From Bugula neritina (Eukaryota; Animalia; Bryozoa): a stretch of 64,000 nucleotides of DNA. The first letter of the stretch is position 1; the number at the start of each line of letters is the position of its first letter. This document shows positions 23,286 to 49,800 of this stretch, piece after piece. The DNA is taken from assembly GCA_964035545.1 (NCBI GenBank), contig OZ037765.1, forward strand, positions 17,484,995-17,548,994, written 5' to 3'. The notes beneath the pieces are model-generated. The model was not told the origin of the DNA and ran no database searches. It saw only the letters and a list, made by a program, of their open reading frames with translations. Position numbers and translations under genes: made by a program.

Positions 23286-23699
23286 GCACTTAATATTATT
23301 AATAATATTACCCACATGGCATATACCATAGTCATACTGATATTAATACTAATAATTACAGTAATAGTAATACTGAGTAATAGGAATTAGTAATACTAGT
23401 AGTTAATTAACTTTGGACTTGGTTCAGGTTATACCATAACTAAGCCTAAGACTTATAGACATAATAGACTAATACTAATAGTTTGAGCTTGACTTTTTGT
23501 AACAAATTCAAATTGAATTAGCACCGAGTAAGTGTAACGAGTGTAACAGTGTTACACTTGAGAGTTATAAATTTAGATATTTACCTTTAGAAAAACTGTT
23601 TTAGTTTCACCAGTGGGCAGTGGCATTTAATTAAATTATCGTTGGAGTCGCAATCACAAAGTGACAACCACATTGACATTGGCAATCACATTTACTTTT

Positions 23700-24975
23700 A
23701 GTGTGCTTCACCATCGACAGCATGGTTTTAGGAAAGGACTGTCCTGCCAAACTCAACTGTGTGTTACCTACCATGACCTAGTAAAAGCAGCCAATGAAGG
23801 ACATACTACCCATGCAGTAGTTATGGATTTCAAAAAGGCTTTTGACAAGGTACCTCACCTTATGTTGCTCCAAAAATTACAAGAGATACCGGGTATAAAT
23901 GGATACCTCCTTAACTGGATACTCGATTTTCTTTCCGACCGACAGCAGTCTGTTGTACTTAGAGGGGCAAGCTCTCAAAAGTGCCGAGTAACCTCAAGAG
24001 TGTCGCAGGGATCTGTGCTAGGTCCAATCCTGTTTTTGTGCTATATAAATGATCTTCCGGATTTGTTGTCATGTAAAGTCAGCCTCTATGCTGATGACAC
24101 TCTACTTTACCAAACTGTGAACACCACTAAGGATGCAGAACTATTCCAAACTAATATTAACGCTGTATATGAGTGGTCTCTAAAATGGAAAATGCCCTTC
24201 AATGAACAGAAATGCCAAGCAATTAATTTTGGTAAGGTAACCCCTATATCACACTACAAACTCGGTACCACATGCCTTGCGTCGGTACAAAGCACTAAAT
24301 ACCTTGGGGTAACCATCCAGTCAAACCTAAAGTTTGATCAACACATAAATAACAAGTGTACCAAGTCCCGGAAAATTCTTGGCGGCATCAAGCATTTGAT
24401 GTATGATGCCCCAAAAGATGCTAAGCTATTGGCTTATACAAGTCTATGTAGGCCTATACTCGATTATGCGGATGTGGTTTGGGATCCTGCGGCTAGGAGT
24501 AAAGTGCATGATATAGAGCTGGTCCAGAACAGTGCCATACGATTTATAAGCAATATGAAGGGACGTGCTGACAGTGTTTCTGAGGCGAGGGATGAGTTAG
24601 GACTCCGGTCGCTGGAAGACAGACGAAAAAATCATCGACTGTGTTTGCTGACCCGAATTCTTCAAAATGAGGATCAACACCAGTCTCTATCCAGAGCCTA
24701 TGACGAAATAATTGAAGGCAGGGAACTTGTAACTGTAACCACTCGAGCGGCTGCCAGAGGAGAGCTTATCTCTATATCATCTAGGAAAAACTTATTCCAC
24801 ACTAGTTTTCTACCACGAACAATTCGTGAAATGCGCGGAGAATATAATAACTAATTACAAAACAGCAAATGCTGTAACTAGTGCTAACCCTGGTCCAATG
24901 TAAGTTTTCACTAGAGGCTTCCCTATAGACTTTCCAGTTGCTGCGGAAGTCCTACCTCAACTGAGGTAATAATCA
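23700..24975 (+). mobile_element. 5'-truncated non-LTR retrotransposon (CR1/L2-group): RT and C-terminal region plus 3' UTR
   Basis: Open frame to 24854 with QHGFRKGLSCQTQL, DFKKAFDKVPH, QGSVLGPILFLCYINDL, YADDT, KYLGV and RPILDYADVVWDP. The short 3' UTR has two small hairpins (gactttcc...ggaagtc and tacctca-ac-tgaggta). Confidence 0.92.
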
Positions 24976-30722: not shown

Positions 30723-32182
30723 CTTTTGTTCAACTCTCAAACTTGTAAACCAGAAAAGATAAACAGTTTTTCAACCACTGTAATGATAACAATAAGCAAT
30801 ATATATGTTTAAACCATAACACAAGCAAAAAATTCTATATTGCACAGAAAATTTATATGGCTTCCTCATCTCACAAAACAGAGTGTGAAAATGAAAATTC
30901 TCGGTGATGTCATTTCACTGCAAAGTGAATTATATTATTTTAATTTACAAATACAGATAGGAGGTGCAAGTGCATTCAGTAGACATGACAGCATAAGCTT
31001 AGATCCATATGGAAGTCTATGATATATTAATTTATAATAATTTGATTTCCACTATGATTACTACTGTAACATGTTAACTAATTTGCATTTTCATTTTTGA
31101 CTTTTCATGTTTAATGTTTATGTCAGTTGACATGGTTATGGTGCTTAAATAATGAGGAATGCTTATGTTATTTACCTATTATCTTGAAACTGATTCCCAC
31201 AAATTATTGTGAATATACATTTATGTTTTTGGCCTACAACCATAACAAATAGATACTTGCATTTATACTAGTTATTAATCAAATATATTTATTAGATATA
31301 TTTTTAAATCATATTAATAAGTATAATTATCATTGATTTTCAGCTCAGATCAAGTTAATATTTAAAATATTGCAACTATCAGTTGCACCAAAAGCCATGC
31401 AACAGAAAGTTGTAATTCTAAGAATTACTGCAGCTGTTTAACTTTATGATCACCCAAAAGGTTTAGCGTGCAGGTATAGAGATACTATATGAGTATAAGT
31501 ATGTATCTGCTTACAACTACTATGTCATAACACTGATATTATAACCACTAAAGGAAGTCATCACCCTCAAACGTGACAGCAAGCTAATACTCAAAATATA
31601 AGCAAAATAAAGCAATCATTTTTCTATAAAAAAGTAAATGTGAACTCTCTAGAAACTAATTGCGTGGTGCCTTACACTAAATAAAAAACATAAATAGTCC
31701 TTAGCAAATGCAAGATATTTACTTGACAGCATTGAACAAAACTATAATTCACTGGTAATTTAAGGCAATAGTTCAAACCAAAATACTTGGTTCAGCAAAA
31801 AAATTGATATTAATAGTAACACCATTACTATTAATAATGATCAATTTTAATGCTATACCCATATTGATACTCTTATTCATAGTACTATTAGTCTTGACTT
31901 TTGGATAGTTGTACTACTAGTAAGTAGTATTTTATGCTTACAATTATAGTTATGCACTACTAAATTTATATTATATGACTTAGTTTCATATGAGTATGAC
32001 TTAGACTAGGTATGGTAATAATACAAAATTTTAATTTATAGAATTAATATTATATTGATAAGTTATAATTATAGACTTTTAGCTATACTCAGTCTAATGA
32101 TGAGATTGATATAACTTAATAATTTAGTAATAGTAATGCTAAGTCTAACAGTTTATTAGCATTGCCATTACTTTTATTAGTT

Positions 32183-32800
32183 CCAAATTCAAGTACTTGG
32201 GCACAACAATCCACCAAGATAGAGGCTGCCGGAGGGAGGTTGAGCTGAGAATATCCAATGCTTGGAATAAGTGGAGAGAGCTGTCTGGTGTGCTCTGTGA
32301 CAAGAAAATGCCCACAAAACTCAAAGTGCTGATTTACAAAATAGCTATCAGACCAACCCTATTATACGGAAATGAGACTTGGCCCATCACAAAATCTCTG
32401 GCGGACAAGATGTCATCATGTGAGATGCGCATGCTGCGATACAGTTTGAATGTCAGTTTAGAGGATCATAAGCCAAATGAGGAAATAACAGCAGAAGCCA
32501 GAGTGATGCCGATTAAAGACCTGATGAGGAAAAGACGAATGCAGTAGTATGGACATGTTAGAAGAGAAAGTGAGGAAGACATCCGGAGAGTGTCAGAGAT
32601 GACAGTTGAGGGAGTTCGACCTAGGGGTAGACCAAAGCAAAGATGGTGTGATACAATAAACTCAGACCTTAGATGGCTCGATCTACATAGCGCAGATGCT
32701 GAAGATCGAGTTCGATGGAGATGTCTGGTAGAACTTGGTATCAAGCAAAAACCCGCCACCTGCGCAAGACCACGGCGGTGAAAGGTGACCAAAGGTGACC
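32183..32800 (+). mobile_element. 5'-truncated RTE-clade LINE with a 16-18 bp TSD
   Basis: Encodes FKYLG, AWNKWRELSGVLCDK, IRPTLLYGNETW, EMRMLR and GVRPRGRPKQRW, with one premature TAG at 32545. The tail is (aaaggtgacc)2. The direct repeat ccattacttttattagtt sits at 32165-32182 and 32799-32816. Confidence 0.92.
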
Positions 32801-33630
32801 ATTACTTTTATTAGTTATTAAGTATTACTACTACTCTATTACAATAGTATTAGATTTAGTATTACTATTAGTTATTAAGTTTGACTTCAAGCTGTTAGAG
32901 AGATGTCTCACTATTACTATTAGTATTACTACAACTAATATTATTAGTATTAGTATAACTATAAGACTTAGCATAACTATAAGAGCATAAGTATTACTAT
33001 TACTTATTTTTACTATTACTTTTAACTATACATTTTATAGTTGTAGTTATATTAGTATCACTATTTATAGTGAGCTGTTAATGTTTTATCAATATGGCAT
33101 AGCCCTATGGCCAGATGGGGTATGGTTATACCTATAGTTATAGTCATAGTGTATGTGATAGTAAAACTATAGTAACAGTTTATAAGTATAAGTACTGTAT
33201 TACTATTACTATTACTATTAGTCTATTACTATTACTATTAGTATAACCGTATTAGTATTTAGTAATACATCATCATTATGATTATGATAAAATATTACAG
33301 TTACTTATATTTTATATTATTTATTACTATTACTATTACTATTAGTATTACAGTATGACTATGAGTATTACTATTTCTATTACTATTAGTCTATTACTAT
33401 CAGTATTATAATTACTATTGGTATTACTATTACTCTTAGTATTAGTAATACTACTAGTAATACTAATAGTATCAGAGTAATAGTAATACTAATACTAAGT
33501 ATAATAGTAATACTAATAGTAATACTAATAGTAATAGTAATACTAATACTAATAGTAATAGTAATACTCACTAATAGTATTACTATAAGTATAACTATAA
33601 GTATAATATTAATATTATTATTATTGATGC
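32801..33630. repeat. Degenerate (TACTAT/TAGTAT/AATAGT)n low-complexity tract
   Basis: Seen directly; explains the spurious ITIS-repeat ORF 33386-33736. Confidence 0.85.
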
Positions 33631-33799
33631 TCATTGATTCAATGTTACTCTCAAATTCAATGGCCATGTGATGTACATGATTATAACACAATGGATTAAC
33701 AATCAATTTGAATTTGATGAGCTTGGATAGTTGCAAATGTCACTTGTACTAATACTTAGCTAAAAAAAACATGACAGACACTACTACTAAAAGCCTTAG

Positions 33800-34519: not shown

Positions 34520-37500
34520 ATGAGTTCTGGTAAGTTCTAAATTTAGCTTGCAGTTGCACCAAATCTTATCATTATATTAAAAATTATAGTTCTAGTGTGG
34601 TGGCTTGTGGAGCTACCAGCAACACAATACGCAAGGTTGCGTATTGACCCGGAACAATGTATTAGCCAATTAGCTAGGCTGTTTATAAGTAATAGTAGCA
34701 GCTTCGCGCTACTAGCTCAGTTGAGGATAATGCTGTAAATTAAATAGACGTGCGTATCATTTACTGTTGTATACTAGTTTTATTATGTATTCTTGTATTA
34801 AAATATAACGATATCTACTCGACTTATCACGGTGAAGTTTCTCTAGTAATAAATAGACTCTCTTGGTTGCACATCGACCCTAAATCTGGAAAACATAACA
34901 GTGGTGGCAGCGGTGGGATAGTGTACATCAAAGATGGAGACTGAAAATGCTAGAATGCAACCACCCCCAGTAGAAGGTGAGCGTAGAAATGCTGTTAATC
35001 CTGTGAATCGTGAGGGAGAAGAAGCTTATAGATATTGCTTGAAAGCTCCCACCTTTACTGGGTCGGAAGATGTCGAACAATTTATACAAGAATTTAGAGA
35101 TGTAATGGAGGTTGCTCAATGGCCGCATAGAGTGGCCCTTATCCAATTGCGGAGAGCGGTGACGGAACAAGCCAAGCCATACGGAGTGGGAACGGACGTA
35201 AACGGGATACTAGCTGCGCTGCGGGCCCGTTTTGGCATCTCCACAATAGACGCTAGGACCAAGTTAGAAAGATTGTGCCGCACCCCGCGGACCCCGCTGC
35301 AAGAACATGCCGCGACGGTGAAGAAGCTGGCGCAGATTGCGTATAGCGATCTGCCAACACAACACCAAGAGCGTTACACCTATGACGCCTTTGTCCAGTC
35401 ACTAAACGACCTGGGCCTACAACATCAACTACGAGCTAAAGGGATAACCAGAATAGAGGATGCCCTGAAGGCTGGAGAAGCTTACCTGTTGGCTACCCAA
35501 ATGCATCGAGCACAACGGAACCCACCAGTAGTTGGAGTCAACGCTGCCAGGGCTACGACAGGTCCCGAAGCCCTCCCGCTGGAAGCCGAAGTGGACCGTA
35601 TGGTAGAGATGCTGGGACAACTGGTAACCATTCTGGCCAGTGCTGGCCCCGGTCAGGCCCTGCGGGTGCCCCCAACGCCTGTGGGGCAGGGCTGGAGTGG
35701 CGCTGGTCAGGACCAGGGACAGAAAGGACGACTCCAATACCAGGGGGCGTTAAACTGTCACGGCCCGCGGACACTCTCCCTCCCCGCGGGCCGCAACTGA
35801 AGGAGTATGGTGGGACACGCCGTCGTCTGTCCGTACGGACACGACGGAACACTCCACCCGAGTGGCAGGTACCACGCAGGACTAGTAGGCCCGCACAACG
35901 GCCGAGTACCTTCTCCCTGCCACTCGCCAACCGGTTCCACCGGTTACCTCGGGAAGAGGAGCCCGCCACTGAAATGGAGCCAGAAGGCCCAGTGGAGAGC
36001 CCCAAACCCCGCCGGCACCAACCTCGCCGCCGGAAACCCCGTAAACCACGGGTGAAACCCCCGCCGTCCTGTCAATCCAGGACAGCACATGCGGGGGGGG
36101 GGGGGTGAAAGTACAACCACATGGAGAGAGCTATTTCCTACCCGGAAAGGTGGCCGGCAACGCCGTCACTTTCCTGCTCGACTCCGGTTGTACTACCAAC
36201 CTTCTCAGTCGTAGAGTCTTTGAGGCACTGCCCCGCCGGGACAGGGATAGAGTACGACCGTATACTGGGGAACATGGCACCCTGGCAGACGGGTCATGTA
36301 TTCCCTTTTATGGTATTATCGAGCTCCCTGGGCGTGTCCGAGACCAGGCTGTACAGGAGACCTTTGTCATAGGCCAACTGGAGGAAGATGCTATCCTCGG
36401 AATGCCCTTCTTGAAGCAACACCAGTGCCGAATAGACTTTAGTAAGTCGGTGGTGCTGATGGGCGGGCGAGAACTCGCCTGTGTGGATAAGTTTGGGCGT
36501 CCTCTGGTGGGCGGTGTTCAGGTAGTTCGGAACTGCACCGTGCCCGGACGCTCCAGAGCTACTATCCACTGCCGAGTGAACAGCAACCGGATAGCCAGGC
36601 TCGGGATCGTTGAAGGCGCGCACGAAAGGATCCAACTCGCCAGTAGTTTAAACCGACTAACTGAGCGAGGGGAGGTCTTAGTGCAGTGTGTCAACCCCTT
36701 TACCGAGCCCATTGAGCTCCCAGCTGGGTCAATGCTGGGCCGGTTCCATTCCGTCCAGGAAGAGGACGTGGGCCCGTCGCTGGGCGACGCGACGGAGGCA
36801 CCCCCTCGACACCCTATTCAGGGACGAGGGGCAGTCCCGACACATCTCCGGGAGTTATATGAAACAGCCAGTGGCGGCTGCGCGAGCAACAAGGAACGCC
36901 AAGCCATGGCGAAGTTGCTACGCGACTACGGTGATGTGTTCAGTAGCGGAGATCATGACGTGGGGCTGACTGGAGTTGTCAGACACGAAATACCGCTGAC
37001 TGCAGGGACAGTCCCTGTCCGGCAGCCCACACGCAGGCTGGGGCCGGAAAAAGAGAAGGAAGTTAGCCGACAAGTACGGGATCTTCTGGACCGGGGACTG
37101 ATAGAGCCCGCCCAAAGTGCGTGGAGCTCGCCAGTCGTACTGGTCCGGAAGAAAGACGGCAGTTGGCGGTTCTGTGTGGATTACCGCAAACTCAATAGCG
37201 TAACCATACAGGACGCTTACCCTCTACCTCGTATTGACGAGTCATTGGACGCCCTAGCCGGCAGCAAGTACTTCAGTACGTTAGACTTGCTAAGCGGCTA
37301 TTGGCAAGTTCCTCTGAGTCCCGACGCCCAGGAGAAAGCGGCGTTTATCACACGGGACGGGTTGTGGAAGTGGAAGGTGCTGCCCTTCGGGTTAACCTCC
37401 GCCCCAGCCACCTTCCAGAGGCTGATGGAACAAGTCCTTAGCGGACTCCATTGGAAGACACTGCTGGTCTACCTCGATGATGTCATCGTAATCTCTCCAG

Positions 37501-40500
37501 ACTTCGAGACACATGTCAGTCGTCTGCAGGAGGTTTTCGATAGACTCCGAGGTGCCGGTCTTAAGCTCAAACCTTCCAAGTGCGCTCTATTGCAGCCGGA
37601 GGTCAAGTACCTGGGGCACGTTGTCGGTCGAAACGGCGTGGCAACGGATCCCGAAAAGGTACGGGCGGTAGAAGACTGGGTCACTCCCCAAGACTTGACC
37701 GGACTCCGGGCTTTCTTGGGGCTGGTAGGGTATTACAGACAATACATACCAGACTTTGCGGGCATAGCACAGCCGTTAAACCGGCTCACCGCAAAGGGAG
37801 TGACGTGGCAGTGGACCCCAGTCGAACAGGAAGCGTTCGACCGCCTCAAGGGCTGCCTACTAACGGCGCCCATCTTGGCCTACCCAGACCCCACTCTGGA
37901 GTACATCCTCGACACGGACGCCAGTGACCAAAATGTTGGCGCTGTGCTGTCACAAGTGCAGGAAGGCCGAGAAGTAGTAGTAGCCTACTACAGTAAGTCT
38001 CTCTCACCCACTGAACGAAACTACTGCACTACCCGCAAGGAGCTGCTGGCAGTAATCAAGTCAGTGAAGCACTTCAGACCATACCTATATGGCAGGAAGT
38101 TCCGGCTGCGTATGGATCATGCCTCGCTGATCTGGTTGTGCAAGAGAGCAGAGCCCTCTAGTCAGGTCGCCCGGTGGCTCGAAATCCTAGCTGAATTCTC
38201 ATACCGGATCGAACATCGACCGGGCAAGAGACACAGCAATGCGGATGGGTTGAGTCGCCGACCTGACGGAGGTTGCAAACAGTGTCTCAACATCGAGAGG
38301 AGGGATGGAGGTCCCCCGCGATGCGAGTTGGAGACGCTGGCTCACCACGGAGCACCGTTCGACTGGGACCAAGGTCAACTCAGGCAAAGAGTTGATGAGT
38401 CCCCGGAGGATGTACAAAACCTCCGCGCCAACCCTGTACTGGCCGGTAATGTTCGAGAGCTGAAGAAGCTCCAAGAAGAGCTGCCTGGAGTCGTGGCAGA
38501 CATATACCGGGCCAAAAGGGAAGGGCGACGACCCAGTGAGGAACGCATACGACAGGGATGCGCCGAGTTCCGGCTATACTGTCAGCGTTGGGACTCGCTG
38601 CGGATCGGGCAGGATGGGTTACTAACCATCTCTCTAGCTGCCAGTGGCAGACACCCGGAAAGGAAGAGGGTAGTCTGTCCCACGGCCATCCGCCGTGAGT
38701 TGATTTGGGATACTCACAAACAGGCCCACGCAGGGGTCAAGAGAGTGATATCCAAATTACGACTCCGGTGGTATTGGCCACAAATGGAGCGTGACGTCCG
38801 GCTCAGAGTCAAACAGTGTGAAATCTGCCAGGCCAGTAAGCATAGCCGCCCCCCTGGTGAAGCAGGACGGCGGAGGCTATATGCTGGTAGGCCCTGGCAA
38901 GTAGTCGCTGTAGACCTGGTCGGACCCATGCCCCTGACCCCCAGAGGCAATAATTGGATCCTAGTACTAACCGACCACTTTACTAGGTGGGCGGATGCTC
39001 TGGCTATCCCAGATGCATCAGCCCCAACAGTGGCCAGGGCACTAGACCAACATGTATTCTGTTATTTTGGGCTCCCCGAACAGATACACTCTGATCAAGG
39101 CGCTCAATTCCAGTCTCAACTGATGAGCGACCTGTGCCACCTCTGGGGAGTAAATCAGAGCAGGACCACCCCCTACCACCCTCAAGGTAACGGGGTGGTG
39201 GAGCGCAACAACCGGATGCTAGGTGATGCACTCCGGAGTCTCCTCCTTGGACGAGGTCAAGAGGAATGGGATACGGTGCTGCCGCAAGTCATGCGTGCAT
39301 ACCGTAGCACCCCACATACCAGTACTGGTGAGACCCCAAACCTCTTGATGCTCGGGAGAGAGACTCGTGTCCCTGACCATCTCACCTATCACGTTCCAGA
39401 GCAAGACAACTCGGTTCACGAGTATGCCAGTGAACTAGTGGAACGGATGAGGGCCGCACACGAGATACTGCGCGAACGGCAGTGGAAGGTGCGGCACGAA
39501 GATTCCGATGAACCACCTCTCTACCAAACGGGAGATAAGGTGTGGATGGTCAATTACCGTAGGCGTCGCGGACAGGCTGATAAACTGAAGCCTAAGTTCG
39601 TAGGACCCTACGTGGTCGTCGAGGCTATGCCCAATCATACGTACAAGATTGAGCGCTCAGGACAGGTGTCTATCCAGAATGAGTCTCGCTTGAAACCGTA
39701 TTGGGCTAGCCCCGACGGAGTGGGAGAAGCCCCCCCGTTGTTAGAGCCCAGGAGGCAGACAACAACGCGCGGGCGACGGCGGCATGGACCTGAATACGAA
39801 GTGGTCATACCGCGGGAAGAAAACTTGGTGAGAGAGGAGCGGCAGCTTTTGTCAACAGAAGCGTGTCCGCCACCGCCAAGTCTAATTCCATCACTTCCAG
39901 AAACCGAGCCGGTTCCGGAAGTGCAAACCCCCACGGAGGGAGGGGCTCCATCCGGAGAACAAGAAGAAGTGACCGCTAACGGTGAAGTAGAGACGCCATT
40001 AGAGGCCCCTACTAACGAACCGGCAAGCGTGTCACCCCCCCTAGAAAGGGGACAGCGTACGAGGAAACCCCCACCATATTTAAAAGACTTCGTATGTGAC
40101 TGCATTAGAAGCGGCGCACATGAAAGTCTAGGGGAAAACCGTATGATAAAATGTTGGAGTTGTGAACCCCACGCAAATATCAACTTTTGCGAGGGCAGAA
40201 TAGTGGGAGGAATTAATGCGCGTAAAGCAAATAGTTCCGACCTCGTGCCTCAGAAACGATGCTCAGCCTTTTCTTATGCTGACATCGCCAAAGGCAGACG
40301 TATCTCACAACCAGCTCCAATCTTACCAAGAACGTTGAGTATGGACATTAATACCGAGTTCCCAGGTAAGCCAGTCTAAGTCTTGTATTCCTATTCATGG
40401 AAACGGGCTCGATGCCAGTAAATTCTGAACTAATTCAGCAGATTGAATCAGAATTACTGGGAACCACGTTTCATGTGAATGACGATGAAGACACTGTAAT

Positions 40501-43500
40501 GGCCGACGGTCTGTTAGACCTGGAGCTAGACACTGTTCTTGGTCAGTCCACACATGATTCATCGGTTCCTCGAGTGCATTCCAAAAGCTGTGACTCTCAG
40601 GCTAGCAACAGTCGACAGTCACTAGAATTATGTTGTAAAGATCCACCGCGATCTAACAATAATTCTACTTTTGTAGACACACTCGCGCCCGTCTCTCCGG
40701 GCATGCCTTCTCTAGAGATGGCATGGGACCCAGAGCCGGCCCCAACAACTTCTACAACCAGGCAACTGCCACCCCAGTTGGAAGCAACCTCCAACTGGAT
40801 TACCCCTGCCACAGAGAGAGAGATTAGGACTCATCAAGGAGGTGAGAGTAGTCGCGAATGCAACCTCTGCCAGCAGCGATTTACAACCCACCGCAGACTA
40901 AAAGTACACTTGCCGCAACATTACATCACCACTTTCTGCCCTTGCGGAGAATATAGCTACAATCGTGATTACCTACTGCGTCACCAACGTACTATGCAGT
41001 GTTATCAAGGACATGTCTATGAAGTAGACGAATCATCCTATCCTGCATTTCTCAATGCCATTAAACCACTCATCACTGACCCAGCTCGGCTATCTCGCCT
41101 GGAGCAAGGCTTCCCTTCCCCGCGACCCATCATCTCTGGAGCCGCAGATAAACCTATACAGTCTACTAACTCTCCACCTCACAATCTTCTACGCATGCCG
41201 CATACCTTTCCTCGTGTCGTACTACAGAGGGTAGACACGAATGCGTATACACTCCCTCCTCCCCTTCCATCCTCAGAGCGGAAAAGACACAGACAGCCGA
41301 CTTCCTCTCGCTCGTCCCCCTGGGCCCGCAACCTACGTGAAGTAGAAGCTAGGGCACACGACTTGGAGCAAGAAGTGTATAGACTGGCCCCGCGGGTGCA
41401 GGCTGCATCCAGTGAACTCAAATATTTACAGGAGTCTATTAAACGCATGAAGCGTGCGGCCCGCAGTTAACTTGAGCCTATCTCCAACTCCATACTACTC
41501 TTCCCCTACCTCTCTGTGGCATTCCCTACCGTTATGGTGGCACGTACTCTACATGTAGATAGGACCTTCTCTTACTTATTACATATTGTGCACGTTTATA
41601 TGTATACCTGTATATTTTTATCAGTTGTTTTTTTTGTATATACTTTTATACTGTTCTCTCTCTCCACAACGAAGTATACGTTTTTTTATGTGAATTATAT
41701 TTTTATCAGAAAGAGGGCTTTCTGCTGGAGGGGGCAGTGTGGTGGCTCGTGGAGCTACCAGCAACACAATACGCAAGGTTGCGTATTGACCCGGAACAAT
41801 GTATTAGCCAATTAGCTAGGCTGTTTATAAGTAATAGTAGCAGCTTCGCGCTACTAGCTCAGTTGAGGATAATGCTGTAAATTAAATAGACGTGCGTATC
41901 ATTTACTGTTGTATACTAGTTTTATTATGTATTCTTGTATTAAAATATAACGATATCTACTCGACTTATCACGGTGAAGTTTCTCTAGTAATAAATAGAC
42001 TCTCTTGGTTGCACATCGACCCTAAATCTGGAAAACATAACACTAGTTCTAGTTATAGTTATACTAATAATTTTTATGTTGCCTTGTGATAGTTTTAAAT
42101 TAATTTGGTTTCATTTAATTTGGAATACATTGTTGTTTATAGGTTTTGTCATAAAAATTGAAATCCTATATAGTGTTGTAGTTTTGTGCACTACCAGAGT
42201 GGGGTATTATTGTATACACGAATTACTGCTGCATGGTTTACAACGAGGTTGCTAGAGAAACCGAAGTAGTTAGTGTTTATGAAAGATCTATATTTTAAGT
42301 CTAATTAGATACAAATAAAGTTATCAACAATTACAAAAGAATACACTTGTAAAACAGCTACACAATTTTATCCTAGTCTACATAACAGTTATCTTCTGAC
42401 TGAGGCTGGGCACCGGAAGGCACTGTTTATATCTGAAAGGTTGGCTCTGATTGGTCTGTGGGGGTTCCGGCGGTGCCGCCATAGGTAGTGATGCGGTACC
42501 GCATAGGATTGCGGCATCGCTAACGGAGTTATCGTCTCTTGGAACTTTTATAATATAATATTATATCACAACTTCTGTTGTAGGTATTTATACATGGAAG
42601 GTTGGGGGTATACTTCCCACAGCCACCACACCAGTTCAAACACTATTATAATTATATAATATGTTAAGAATTTCCAATACAAATACTAACTTTTCTGACA
42701 GCTCATTTGATTTGCTTGCTGTTGTCATGTTTTCCTATTGTTTTAGAAGAAGATGCCAGTTTATTAGTAATAGTTCTTGATACGAATTGTGTATGGTGGG
42801 GAGAGCGTACTGAAGGTGTCCACCACGGTAGTCCACATCATCAGAAAAATGGCAATTTAAACAACGCTAATCATGCGTCTGACGGCAGTCAGGTATTTCT
42901 ATCAAATTTTTCTATTTAAAATGTTTAACCAATAGTCTATAGGCATGAGAGATCATTTTTTGATAATATCATTTACATTTGCTTATTCTCAAATATTTTA
43001 GATTCTACTGACGGAGCTGGTTGATGGAGTCATTACATTTGGCAATGCTCATCTGCTAACCAATCATAAGAATACTCTAGCGATCATAGCGTGCCAAGCA
43101 AATAGAAGTCAATATATATACCCTCCTAGGCAATTCGTAGCCACTCACAATGCTACAACTGGCGCTACAGCGGATACCTTACAGCTACTTAAAAACTCTG
43201 TGAAAGGAGAATTGTCTCATTTACTTTCAGAAGGTACAAGTTATAGGCTGTTTTTTTAATCATTTCTTTGTGTTTTTATTATAACATGCTGTCTCCAAAA
43301 TTTGGGCTTGTTTTAATGCAGTTTGTTTGTTAACCTGTTCTCCATTAAAGATATGTGCGGTTTGTATTAATTTTAGTTTGAGGTTCTGAATGAATACTTA
43401 GATAAGCATGACTTCCTGCATGCAATCAAATTATAAGCTAGTAGCATTATAGAGACATTTACCTTAGAGAGTAACCTCACTATGCTTGTTACTATTTACT

Positions 43501-46852: not shown

Positions 46853-49800
46853 TCAGGTAAATAGACGGAAGCCTTTGTTGAAAATTTTAAAGGTGCTGGT
46901 GGACTTTTTCAGAGGCCTAGGGGCAGTGAGTGATTGTTTTGCAGAACTTTTAGCACGTCTGGTTAATGACTTGGGAAGACTGCTTGTGTGAGATATTGAT
47001 TCCGGGATACTGGCAACAGTTGAGTGAAGAGAGGACAATTCTCTCTCCTGTTGAATTTCCCTGACAATGCTGTGAAATACTGAATCAACAGCATTCATGT
47101 TTCCTCTAGCACTGCTCTCCTGGAACAAACTATGAAACTTGTCTGCTAGAGACTGTCCCTCATAAAGGTCCACTTGTCTACAATAACACAAATAGAACAC
47201 AGGCTAAAATAATGAGATTTGAGTCAAACATAAAAATATTGAAGGCAGCTGACATTAAAAAAGTCGCAGGATTTTTATTGCATTCCTATATTTAGTAGTG
47301 GTTTAGAGCATTTTTTATACATTATAAAAGTTTCAATATGTGCTTAAAGGCTAAAAACAGTATTACATAATTTGGGAGAAGTTCTTATTGTCTGCTAAAA
47401 TTCACTAGTTTCTAATACTGATGAGTTGAGTATAAAATGTTTTATTCCTCACTTAGTTTATATAAATTCACCGTCAGTTGGCCATAACTTTGTAATTTTA
47501 TGGCCAAGTATGTTTAGCTATCAGAATAATATTTCTTATACATTGGCCTTATAACTACAAGCTTGGTTGATGAAATAACAGAGCTAATTAAAACATTTTT
47601 CAGACATTTTGCAAACATCCTCGAACCTCAATCTGTCAAGGTCTTTCTTGTTTCCAACCAGTATGGTAGGCTGCATCTCAACTCCTTTTTGTTGGCATTG
47701 TATCCGTATGTGCTTCAAATATGCCTGTGCTTCTAAAAAGCTAGACTTGCTCGCCACACTATAGACAACTATAAACCCATCAGCCCACTTTATGTACTTA
47801 TCCAACTCTATACAACTCTGTAACACAAATTTATTATGGTAGACAGCTGTGTTGCTATTGCTCATGGAAACACCATGGAGGGGTAAAAGACAACTTCACT
47901 TTTGCAAAAAATAAATGTGCCTTCAACCAATGATTAAGGCTAATCCTTCAACTTTGTTGAAGGCTAAAACTTCAACCTTATTGAAGGCTAAAACACCTTC
48001 AACAATAATTTATACTAAAATTAATTTTAAATAACAACAATTCTAACTTGTAAGAGTTTTGGGGAAGTAAACAAATATGGGGCGCTGTTTGGACGTTGGT
48101 GTGCCCAACTTTTATTAGAGCAAAATGTAGGCTCATGTGGGGTAGAAATAACAACATTCAGCCATGATACTCAATTTAAAATATGAAACATTAAGAGCTA
48201 TCAGGTTTTCGTGCAAATTTGGGGAGAACCCTGGACAATACCTAGTCAAATGTCAATATATAACATAATATACTACAATATGATATAAACAATAAACTCA
48301 ACCTACACTAACTTTGCACGTGTTAATTACCTGAGGAAATTGAGGAAATTGAAACATAATGAAATTATTAGAGTGCTATGTCAGTTTACACCCTCAGACC
48401 CAACACCTGTGTATTAGTAAAAGCTTGCCTGGAGTTATGTGCACTCACAAAAATACTTTGGGCACAAGCAGAACTATACATACAAATATTGTGCATTTAT
48501 GATATAACATCTGACAAGCTAGAACTTTTATTTCTAAGTGAGAATATACTGCAACTCTGTATTTCTGCATATAAATGAAAAAGATTGCAAACTTTTTGGT
48601 ATTGATTTTGCTATAATTTAAAACAAGGCGCCCTTTTTGTCAACTGTTGCCTTAAATTTGGCAAAATGTATTTTCAAAATTTTCCATATCAAACTTTGGG
48701 GTAAGAAAAACGCATTTCAATTATTTCAGACAATTAAGAATTAATAAATACAATGTTTATAGGCTAAACAGCACCTAATTTATTTTGAAAATATGAATAC
48801 CCACCTAAATTAACTGATATAAAATGCCCTAATTGAATTCTTCTGACATGACCCAACTTTTAAAATACCGTATCATGCAAACGTACATTTTGAATTTGTC
48901 AATTAGAAATATTTCCAAACATTTTATATATAAAAAACAGAAATCCTATTAACAACTTTTTGGTAAATTGGAACATAAAAGTTCAAATAAATATAATATT
49001 TAGATTAAAAACCATTTTAAATCTGGCCTAAGGAGTTTATCTTAGAAACTGCTTGACTTCCATAGCCACAACAATATAACAAAAAGTTGTCTATTTTTAA
49101 AAAATTCTTATTTTTTTAGCTTATATAGAAACAATTGTCAATAATTAAATGATACCGTGCTTGAAGTAGTAGCAATTTGATGCAAATGTACAATAATTAA
49201 TCCTATATTGAGAATGTTTGAGTAACAATAAAGTGTTTTAGTAGTTTTAATGCTGACAAATTTTCAATTTATTTTCTAAATTTTGTTTTATATATTGTGT
49301 AATTCTGACATGCAATGATCCTAAACGTAGTCCGGATTTATGTTTGCATGTAGCATATGTGGTGCATCACGTCAAATTAACTGAGGAAACAGCAACAACT
49401 AGGTTTGAGACAATAACTTTCTATCAAAAGAACTATACACATCTATAGAATAATTCAATTTAATTTCTTATCCTACATGCACAAGAAATTGGGAAATACT
49501 TGTTATATTGCATACAATTTCATAGCTCTCTGTGTCTAAGATACCTACCCCTGAGTGCGTGTATGTATCCCATACTCGGATAGTCACTGGCTCATGTTCA
49601 ACTATATCAACTTTGTTGTATTTCCCATCTATAAGTAAAATATCCAACATTACACCACTCAAGTTAATAATAGACTAAATATATATACTGTATACATGTA
49701 TATATACATGTATATATACAGGTATATATACATGTATATATACATGTATATATACATACATACATAATTATATATATATATATATATATATATCCCACTA

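Follow-up and report, generated by a model that had tools for sequence, protein, structure and literature searches.

A conserved linear motif in the third open reading frame of a bryozoan Ty3/Gypsy retrotransposon is a probable ligand of the HP1 chromoshadow dimer

Does an animal retrotransposon encode its own ligand for HP1, a host protein that silences genes? The question is raised by a locus within 64,000 nucleotides of the Bugula neritina genome (contig OZ037765.1; hereafter the window), where the initial annotation had pointed to PRVVLQRVD, in the third open reading frame (ORF3) of a retrotransposon, as an HP1 box of the KAP1/TRIM28 kind. If true, a selected HP1 box in a retrotransposon protein would give direct access to the ways in which animal elements deal with heterochromatin. 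The codons bear out the nonapeptide, which corresponds to residues 272-280 of the ORF3 product (P0001) and is preceded by a Phe codon at 41207. Coordinates of all features are collected in Table 1.

The element carrying this motif is a young, env-less Ty3/Gypsy LTR retrotransposon in an AT-rich animal genome. It has the LTRs, primer-binding site (presumably for tRNA-Leu), purine tract, CTAG target-site duplication on either side and PR-RT-RH-IN order of pol that define this class. Pfam found no Chromo domain in pol at E ≤ 1, which separates the element from chromoviruses, and neither Pfam nor a viral fold library returned an env domain in ORF3, which separates it from errantivirus-like elements. 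ORF3 itself lies between pol and the 3' LTR, starting 17 nt past the pol stop. A splice-donor-like CAG/GTAAG occurs at 40363-40371, in the final pol codons just upstream of ORF3; about 0.5 chance occurrences of a 7-mer of this kind are expected per element. Further upstream, the reading frame changes twice on the way from gag to pol: the gag frame ends at 35800, a second frame extends from 35440 to 36108, and that of pol starts at 36045, close to 13 consecutive G (36093-36105). These changes may be programmed, or may reflect breaks or an assembly error.

Table 1 Features of the retrotransposon and of its ORF3 product in the window
Feature	Positions	Strand	Basis and remarks
5' LTR, 305 bp, TG...CA	34596..34900	+	Preceded by the 4-bp target-site duplication CTAG; one mismatch with the 3' LTR (34606)
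Primer-binding site, TGG... right after the LTR	34902..34919	+	Sequence
gag-like ORF	34937..35800	+	Assigned by position; no Pfam match below E 0.06
pol ORF: aspartyl protease, RT, RNase H, integrase (H2C2, rve, SH3-like)	36045..40379	+	Pfam
ORF3 (P0001, 357 aa), accessory protein	40397..41470	+	ORF list, Pfam, AlphaFold2, relatives
Compact zinc domain, residues 121-240	40757..41116	+	pLDDT 91-98; conserved ligands
Conserved Thr270, upstream of the box (T-x-P unit)	41204..41206	+	Site rate 0.21, same as V274
PRVVLQRVD, PxVxL-type, predicted HP1 chromoshadow ligand	41210..41236	+	Codons; P at -2, V at 0, L at +2, R at +4, V at +5
Basic cluster RKRHR, residues 295-299	41279..41293	+	Site rates 0.31-0.83 at 295-298
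C-terminal helix, residues 308-356	41318..41464	+	AlphaFold2
Purine-rich tract 5' of the 3' LTR	41724..41737	+	Sequence
3' LTR, followed by CTAG	41738..42042	+	LTR comparison

Many diverged copies of the element are present in a public sequencing run (X1; 1429 contigs aligned), and the family, which is multi-copy, has been active recently. All 12 indels listed, out of 20 among the copies in this run, fall outside ORF3, and the motif has none of the variant sites among the 40 listed of 81. Low-depth joints in the same run skip 40128-41703 and 40217-41704 and correspond to copies devoid of any ORF3. A contig of a relative from an RNA library spans 41122-41397 with 21 differences at a depth of 2.55 and is no evidence of transcription. 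No ORF3 loci were found in metagenome or viral contigs.

According to an AlphaFold2 model based on a 38-row alignment, the ORF3 product consists of a confidently predicted domain, an unstructured linker and a helix. The domain contains a canonical C2H2 finger (C155/C158/H171/H175) and an atypical site (C181-x-C183...H196...C202), packed together with flanking helices, and the zinc ligands are conserved in nearly all ungapped rows of 37. ORF3 has one canonical and one atypical finger, placed within a single compact predicted domain rather than in a tandem array. Pfam zf-C2H2 matches ORF3 weakly (E 0.021); the best PDB matches of the zinc domain in Foldseek are C2H2 proteins, all worse than E 0.001, and neither PDB nor viral models gave a Foldseek match to ORF3 at E ≤ 0.001, while matches in ESM Atlas are unnamed clusters and generic C2H2 clusters with low recognition. 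As there is no Pfam family above cut-off and no Foldseek match at that threshold, the modelled domain looks like an apparently undescribed fold family, whose profile is matched by 175 of the 203 proteins that we collected (see below).

The remainder of the chain agrees with the proposal that the motif lies in a disordered linker between the zinc domain and a coiled coil: pLDDT is 48-55 over residues 251-310 and about 53 at 271-280, no secondary structure is predicted at the motif, and this low confidence argues against an internal strand. Downstream of the motif, the RKRHR cluster is likely a nuclear localisation signal, and the modelled C-terminal helix is likely a coiled coil through which the protein would dimerise. 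The stretch comprising both (41279-41464) gives weak profile matches to C/EBP, other bZIP and coiled-coil chains (E 0.05-0.6), probably a generic coiled-coil likeness.

A PxVxL pentamer in one sequence is at chance level, because 13.5% of 5000 shuffled versions of P0001 contain one; the looser [PL]xVx[LIMV] appears in 45.5% of 5000 shuffles and the core of the HP1 Access Code in 28%. Likewise, the bare degenerate pentamer is present in more than half of the fly proteome (PMC12526061). The longer patterns PxVxLx[RK][LIV] and PRVxLxRxD occur in 0.3% and in none of 20000 shuffles, respectively, and were picked post hoc, after sight of the sequence. The 30-aa motif region had zero matches among PDB sequences at E ≤ 10.

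We turned to conservation among relatives, of which 61 were found at E ≤ 0.01 and 218 at E ≤ 0.001 in a 50% library; the collected set of 203 proteins comprises the 61 and the best 150 of the 218, query included. Since many relatives are truncated or out of frame, we analysed the 38 frame-intact members, P0001 included, in which the zinc-domain and coiled-coil profiles were both matched in that order; the coiled-coil profile was built from alignment rows hand-picked for an in-frame linker, so this selection may favour motif-bearing clades. Within the linker, [PLC]x[VI]x[LIVM] occurs in 35 of the 38 (all except P0044, P0096 and P0128), against 7.6 expected from shuffles. Strict PxVxL occurs in 25 (1.8 expected) and the Access Code core, from -2 to +5, in 30 (2.8 expected), including the window's copy; as the 38 members are related, none of these shuffle counts is a probability.

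Because the sequences are related, site rates were also estimated on a tree (37 rows, P0101 being left out; total length 12.9). The motif evolves at a rate of 0.69, nearly identical to that of the zinc core (0.68), compared with 1.86 and 1.72 for its two flanks, and V274 and T270 are the slowest-evolving sites of the linker. Position 0 is V in 34 of the 37 rows and I in none; +1 is V, L, I or M in 35, +4 is R in 31 and +5 is I or V in 30, while the spacing between zinc domain and motif ranges from 16 to 32 residues. At a distance of 2.1-2.6 substitutions per site lies a second clade (support 100) with the form LxVx[LIV]. Its sequence is T-Q-P-L-R-V-x-L, where L occupies -2, and the T-x-P unit is kept in both clades but shifted by one residue; the rate of column 272 mixes the two registers, since the alignment placed the P of the distant clade there. 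A further search added 17 proteins, and the motif is present in all four with the region in frame (P0206, P0207, P0208 and P0214), whereas P0205 runs on into the coiled-coil region but does not match the stricter pattern applied.

Loss of the motif alongside retention of the fingers, which had been named as the observation that would speak against the box, was not seen within the ORF3 clade, where 35 of 38 members keep the pentamer at the pace of the zinc domain. The 36 proteins in which only the first part of the zinc domain is matched, mostly the farthest relatives, show no enrichment (8 of 36, against 5.4 expected), and in the Bugula proteins and a second Watersipora protein no motif lies within 60 residues of the zinc domain; the box is thus not needed by the whole domain family. 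Could the motif still be a coincidental match that is kept because of constraints on structure or on the nucleotide sequence? The shuffle frequencies of PxVxL and of the Access Code core would allow it. This reading is nevertheless largely refuted, and we consider it very improbable, given the slow rate of the motif over a 12.9-substitution tree, the lack of predicted structure at the motif and the state of the other five frames, four of which contain stops within 41150-41300 and none of which has a 100-aa ORF there. We conclude that this is a real linear motif under purifying selection.

As to what the motif binds, its sequence makes PRVVLQRVD a probable ligand of the HP1 chromoshadow dimer. 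LxVxL and CxVxL are listed as degenerate HP1-binding forms (PMC7465937), and a study of fly HP1 ligands describes tolerance of P, L or C at -2 and of L, I or V at +2, a basic +4 residue in 16 of 16 functional peptides, contacts made by a hydrophobic +5 residue and location of functional motifs in disordered regions (PMC12526061). Substitutions among ORF3 relatives obey the same rules, with P replaced by L at -2, V, I or M in place of L at +2 and Arg mostly retained at +4. As expected of HP1 chromoshadow ligands, the window's copy has a hydrophobic -2, V at 0, a hydrophobic +2, predicted disorder, conservation above the flanks and a basic +4. One relative, P0029, reads VPMVVLQQI and thereby differs at 1 of 9 positions from VPMVVLQDI, a mouse CAF-1 peptide used in HP1 calorimetry (bioRxiv 10.64898/2026.10.13.758779).

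The fit is imperfect. Thr at -4 and Phe at -3 set the window's copy apart from the full Drosophila Access Code, which only 7 of the 38 members match throughout, and the copy has two basic residues compared with the 3-6 described for the code (PMC12526061). The full code is, however, fly-specific, and the mouse CAF-1 peptide, with D at +4, would fail it too. Two further features count against binding to HP1: the +1 residue in the ORF3 family is mostly hydrophobic rather than basic, and HP1 rules leave the conservation of Thr270 without explanation.

This conserved Thr is one reason for considering that the motif is a beta-strand ligand of another nuclear reader, either the ET domain of BET proteins, as in the tail of MLV integrase, or a partner that also reads T-x-P, and we regard such a ligand as unlikely. 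The P-L-R-V of the distant clade is reminiscent of PLK, a conserved turn within the motif by which MLV integrase binds ET, and acidic and hydrophobic residues alternate in the lining of the ET pocket (bioRxiv 10.1101/2020.09.21.306696). This pocket suits a basic +1 residue, and ET is the weaker fit because +1 in the ORF3 family is hydrophobic in all but two of the 37 rows. Docking on calcineurin through a PxIxIT-type motif, instead of on HP1, appears improbable. PxIxIT favours I, a residue that position 0 never shows (V in 34 of 37 rows); moreover, R at +4 and I or V at +5 would be left unexplained. It is true that PRVVLQ matches the loose P[^PG][FILV][^PG][FILV][^PG] (bioRxiv 10.1101/632547), that 24 of 38 members do so against 5.3 expected and that some distant members have a V-T or I-S ending, but not one of the nine pentamer-bearing members that have L at -2 fits this pattern. 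Patterns for SUMO-interacting motifs matched none of the 38 members and RVxF matched one, and both readings were rejected.

The likeness to KAP1 was a separate part of the initial annotation. The HP1 box of TRIM28 is PRVSLERLD, and a special resemblance to it is not supported: the positions that create the likeness, -1, +3 and +6, vary among relatives, and the mouse CAF-1 peptide is about as close. A literature search for PRVSL together with HP1 returned no match, and KAP1 or TIF1 had no text match in the accessible part of the supplement to PMC12526061, whose mammalian motif panels, being figures, may bear on the comparison of flanks. KAP1 recruits SETDB1 and NuRD through an RBCC/PHD-bromo architecture and is paired with KRAB (PMC12528215). 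In ORF3, Pfam gave no match to RING, B-box, PHD, bromodomain or KRAB at E ≤ 1, and since these defining domains are absent, the notion of a one-protein mimic of KRAB-ZNF and KAP1 has to be reduced to a functional analogy. What ORF3 does share with the KRAB-ZNF and KAP1/TRIM28 system is the combination of zinc fingers, coiled coil and HP1-type box; it differs in a box that resembles KAP1 no more than it does CAF-1 and in having two zinc sites without an array.

More broadly, ORF3 has in common with host ligands of the PxVxL or Access Code type (CAF-1 p150, KAP1, Odj and XNP) the core, the disordered linker, the basic +4, the hydrophobic +5 and fast flanks, and Odj is likewise a zinc-finger protein with a box in its linker (PMC7655104). 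In contrast to these proteins, ORF3 belongs to a mobile element, does not match the fly consensus in full and is an HP1 ligand by prediction. A viral parallel is provided by the agnoprotein of JC virus, which is about 70 aa long. In this accessory protein, a PxVxL-like motif binds the HP1 chromoshadow dimer, as established by ITC and a crystal structure (bioRxiv 10.1101/2024.11.04.621823). Agnoprotein differs from ORF3 in belonging to a polyomavirus and in having no zinc domain, and it reshapes nuclear mechanics, with no effect on silenced genes reported in the accessible part of that preprint. Neither a retrotransposon-encoded HP1 ligand nor ORF3 was found among the matches listed from the open literature, and the accessible portions of PMC13269885 and PMC8287961 contain nothing on retrotransposon-encoded HP1 ligands. 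ORF3 is thus probably an undescribed retrotransposon accessory protein with a conserved motif that would serve as an HP1 ligand.

How might such a protein act? By comparison with known HP1 ligands, V274 would lie at the interface of the chromoshadow domain (CSD) dimer, with P272 and L276 in flanking pockets, and R278 would pair with an acidic residue of the CSD. In this way ORF3, which is predicted to be nuclear, to dimerise through its coiled coil and to carry a zinc domain, would dock on HP1-coated chromatin; going by its anatomy, the zinc domain may read DNA or RNA of the element itself and the coiled coil may double both contacts. Effectors are described as competing for one HP1 surface, the only cleft that a CSD dimer offers. 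Given this competition, element-bound ORF3 would most simply displace repressive partners locally, and the outcome would be an eased silencing of its own element, that is, a family-specific anti-silencing similar to that of VANC. Since a selfish element has kept the ORF across such divergence, ORF3 should serve the element. VANC, from the Arabidopsis VANDAL elements, is an element-encoded accessory protein with sequence-specific action on its own silencing (PMC6719617), although it comes from a DNA transposon, acts on the DNA-methylation system of plants and is unrelated to ORF3.

Provided that the motif is an HP1 ligand, we see anti-silencing as a serious possibility that falls short of an even chance, self-repression as doubtful and an integration tether as more doubtful still; anti-silencing is put slightly ahead of the other two, and the data do not separate them. 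Repression, the leading idea of the initial annotation, would mean that ORF3 binds its own element or host loci and recruits HP1 there, limiting copy number or holding the element silent in the soma as a one-chain stand-in for KRAB-ZNF and KAP1. Taken as a whole, including its dependence on HP1 binding, this account seems unlikely to us. It draws on identical motif evidence (35 of 38 members and the site rates), on host zinc-finger proteins with PxVxL in a linker, such as Drosophila Odj (PMC7655104), and on self-restraint being a recurrent strategy of transposable elements (PMC6719617), but ORF3 is devoid of a KRAB, RBCC or PHD-bromo module, has just two zinc sites in one compact domain and belongs to a family that is multi-copy and recently active.

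Tethering, whereby ORF3 would take part in the integration complex and steer it to HP1 chromatin, has precedents in Ty5, where integrase engages Sir4, and in chromovirus integrases, retrotransposon proteins that likewise engage a heterochromatin component (PMC8909793). It would also suit a pol without a chromodomain match and an ORF3 beginning 17 nt past the pol stop. In Ty5 and chromoviruses, however, the tether is within integrase, whereas in the window's element it would be a separate ORF outside integrase, with HP1 as the putative partner. No integrase domain was found in any of 25 longer or distant relatives scanned, and some 5 kb separate the window's copy from the exons of a gene that is Ras-like by eye. 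Considered together with the need for HP1 binding, we judge tethering to be quite unlikely. Relief of silencing, self-repression and targeting alike would add a compact module that joins a sequence reader to an HP1 ligand.

Relatives of ORF3 in bryozoans extend this picture. An annotated gene of Watersipora subatra (XP_067940964.1; P0063/P0228 with XP_067940963.1) encodes two ORF3-type zinc domains, with 44% and 41% identity, and an HP1-type motif is situated behind each of them: first LSVKL, then a full match to the Access Code, which counts in favour of an HP1 ligand. The C-terminal stretch of this protein resembles a coiled coil by eye. It may be a domesticated gene, a donor or an annotated copy of an element, and would exemplify exchange between a host and its element. 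Further relatives of ORF3 are encoded by neighbouring genes in Bugula neritina and lack the motif. With more reservation than confidence, one may picture an animal Gypsy lineage encoding a dedicated, dimeric HP1-engaging zinc-domain regulator that would read its own element, fill the HP1 cleft and control its own heterochromatin, as an animal counterpart of VANC, with the module recurring in a bryozoan gene that was domesticated or was the donor.

Several other features surround the element in the window. An AT-rich hexamer-like satellite occupies 33000-33640, approximately 1 kb upstream of the element, and LINE-like (non-LTR) fragments are located at 23631-24854 (RT match, E 1.8e-29) and, by eye, at 32149-32547. 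On the minus strand, exon-like ORFs at 46853-47895 resemble, also by eye, a Ras-family (RERG-like) GTPase.
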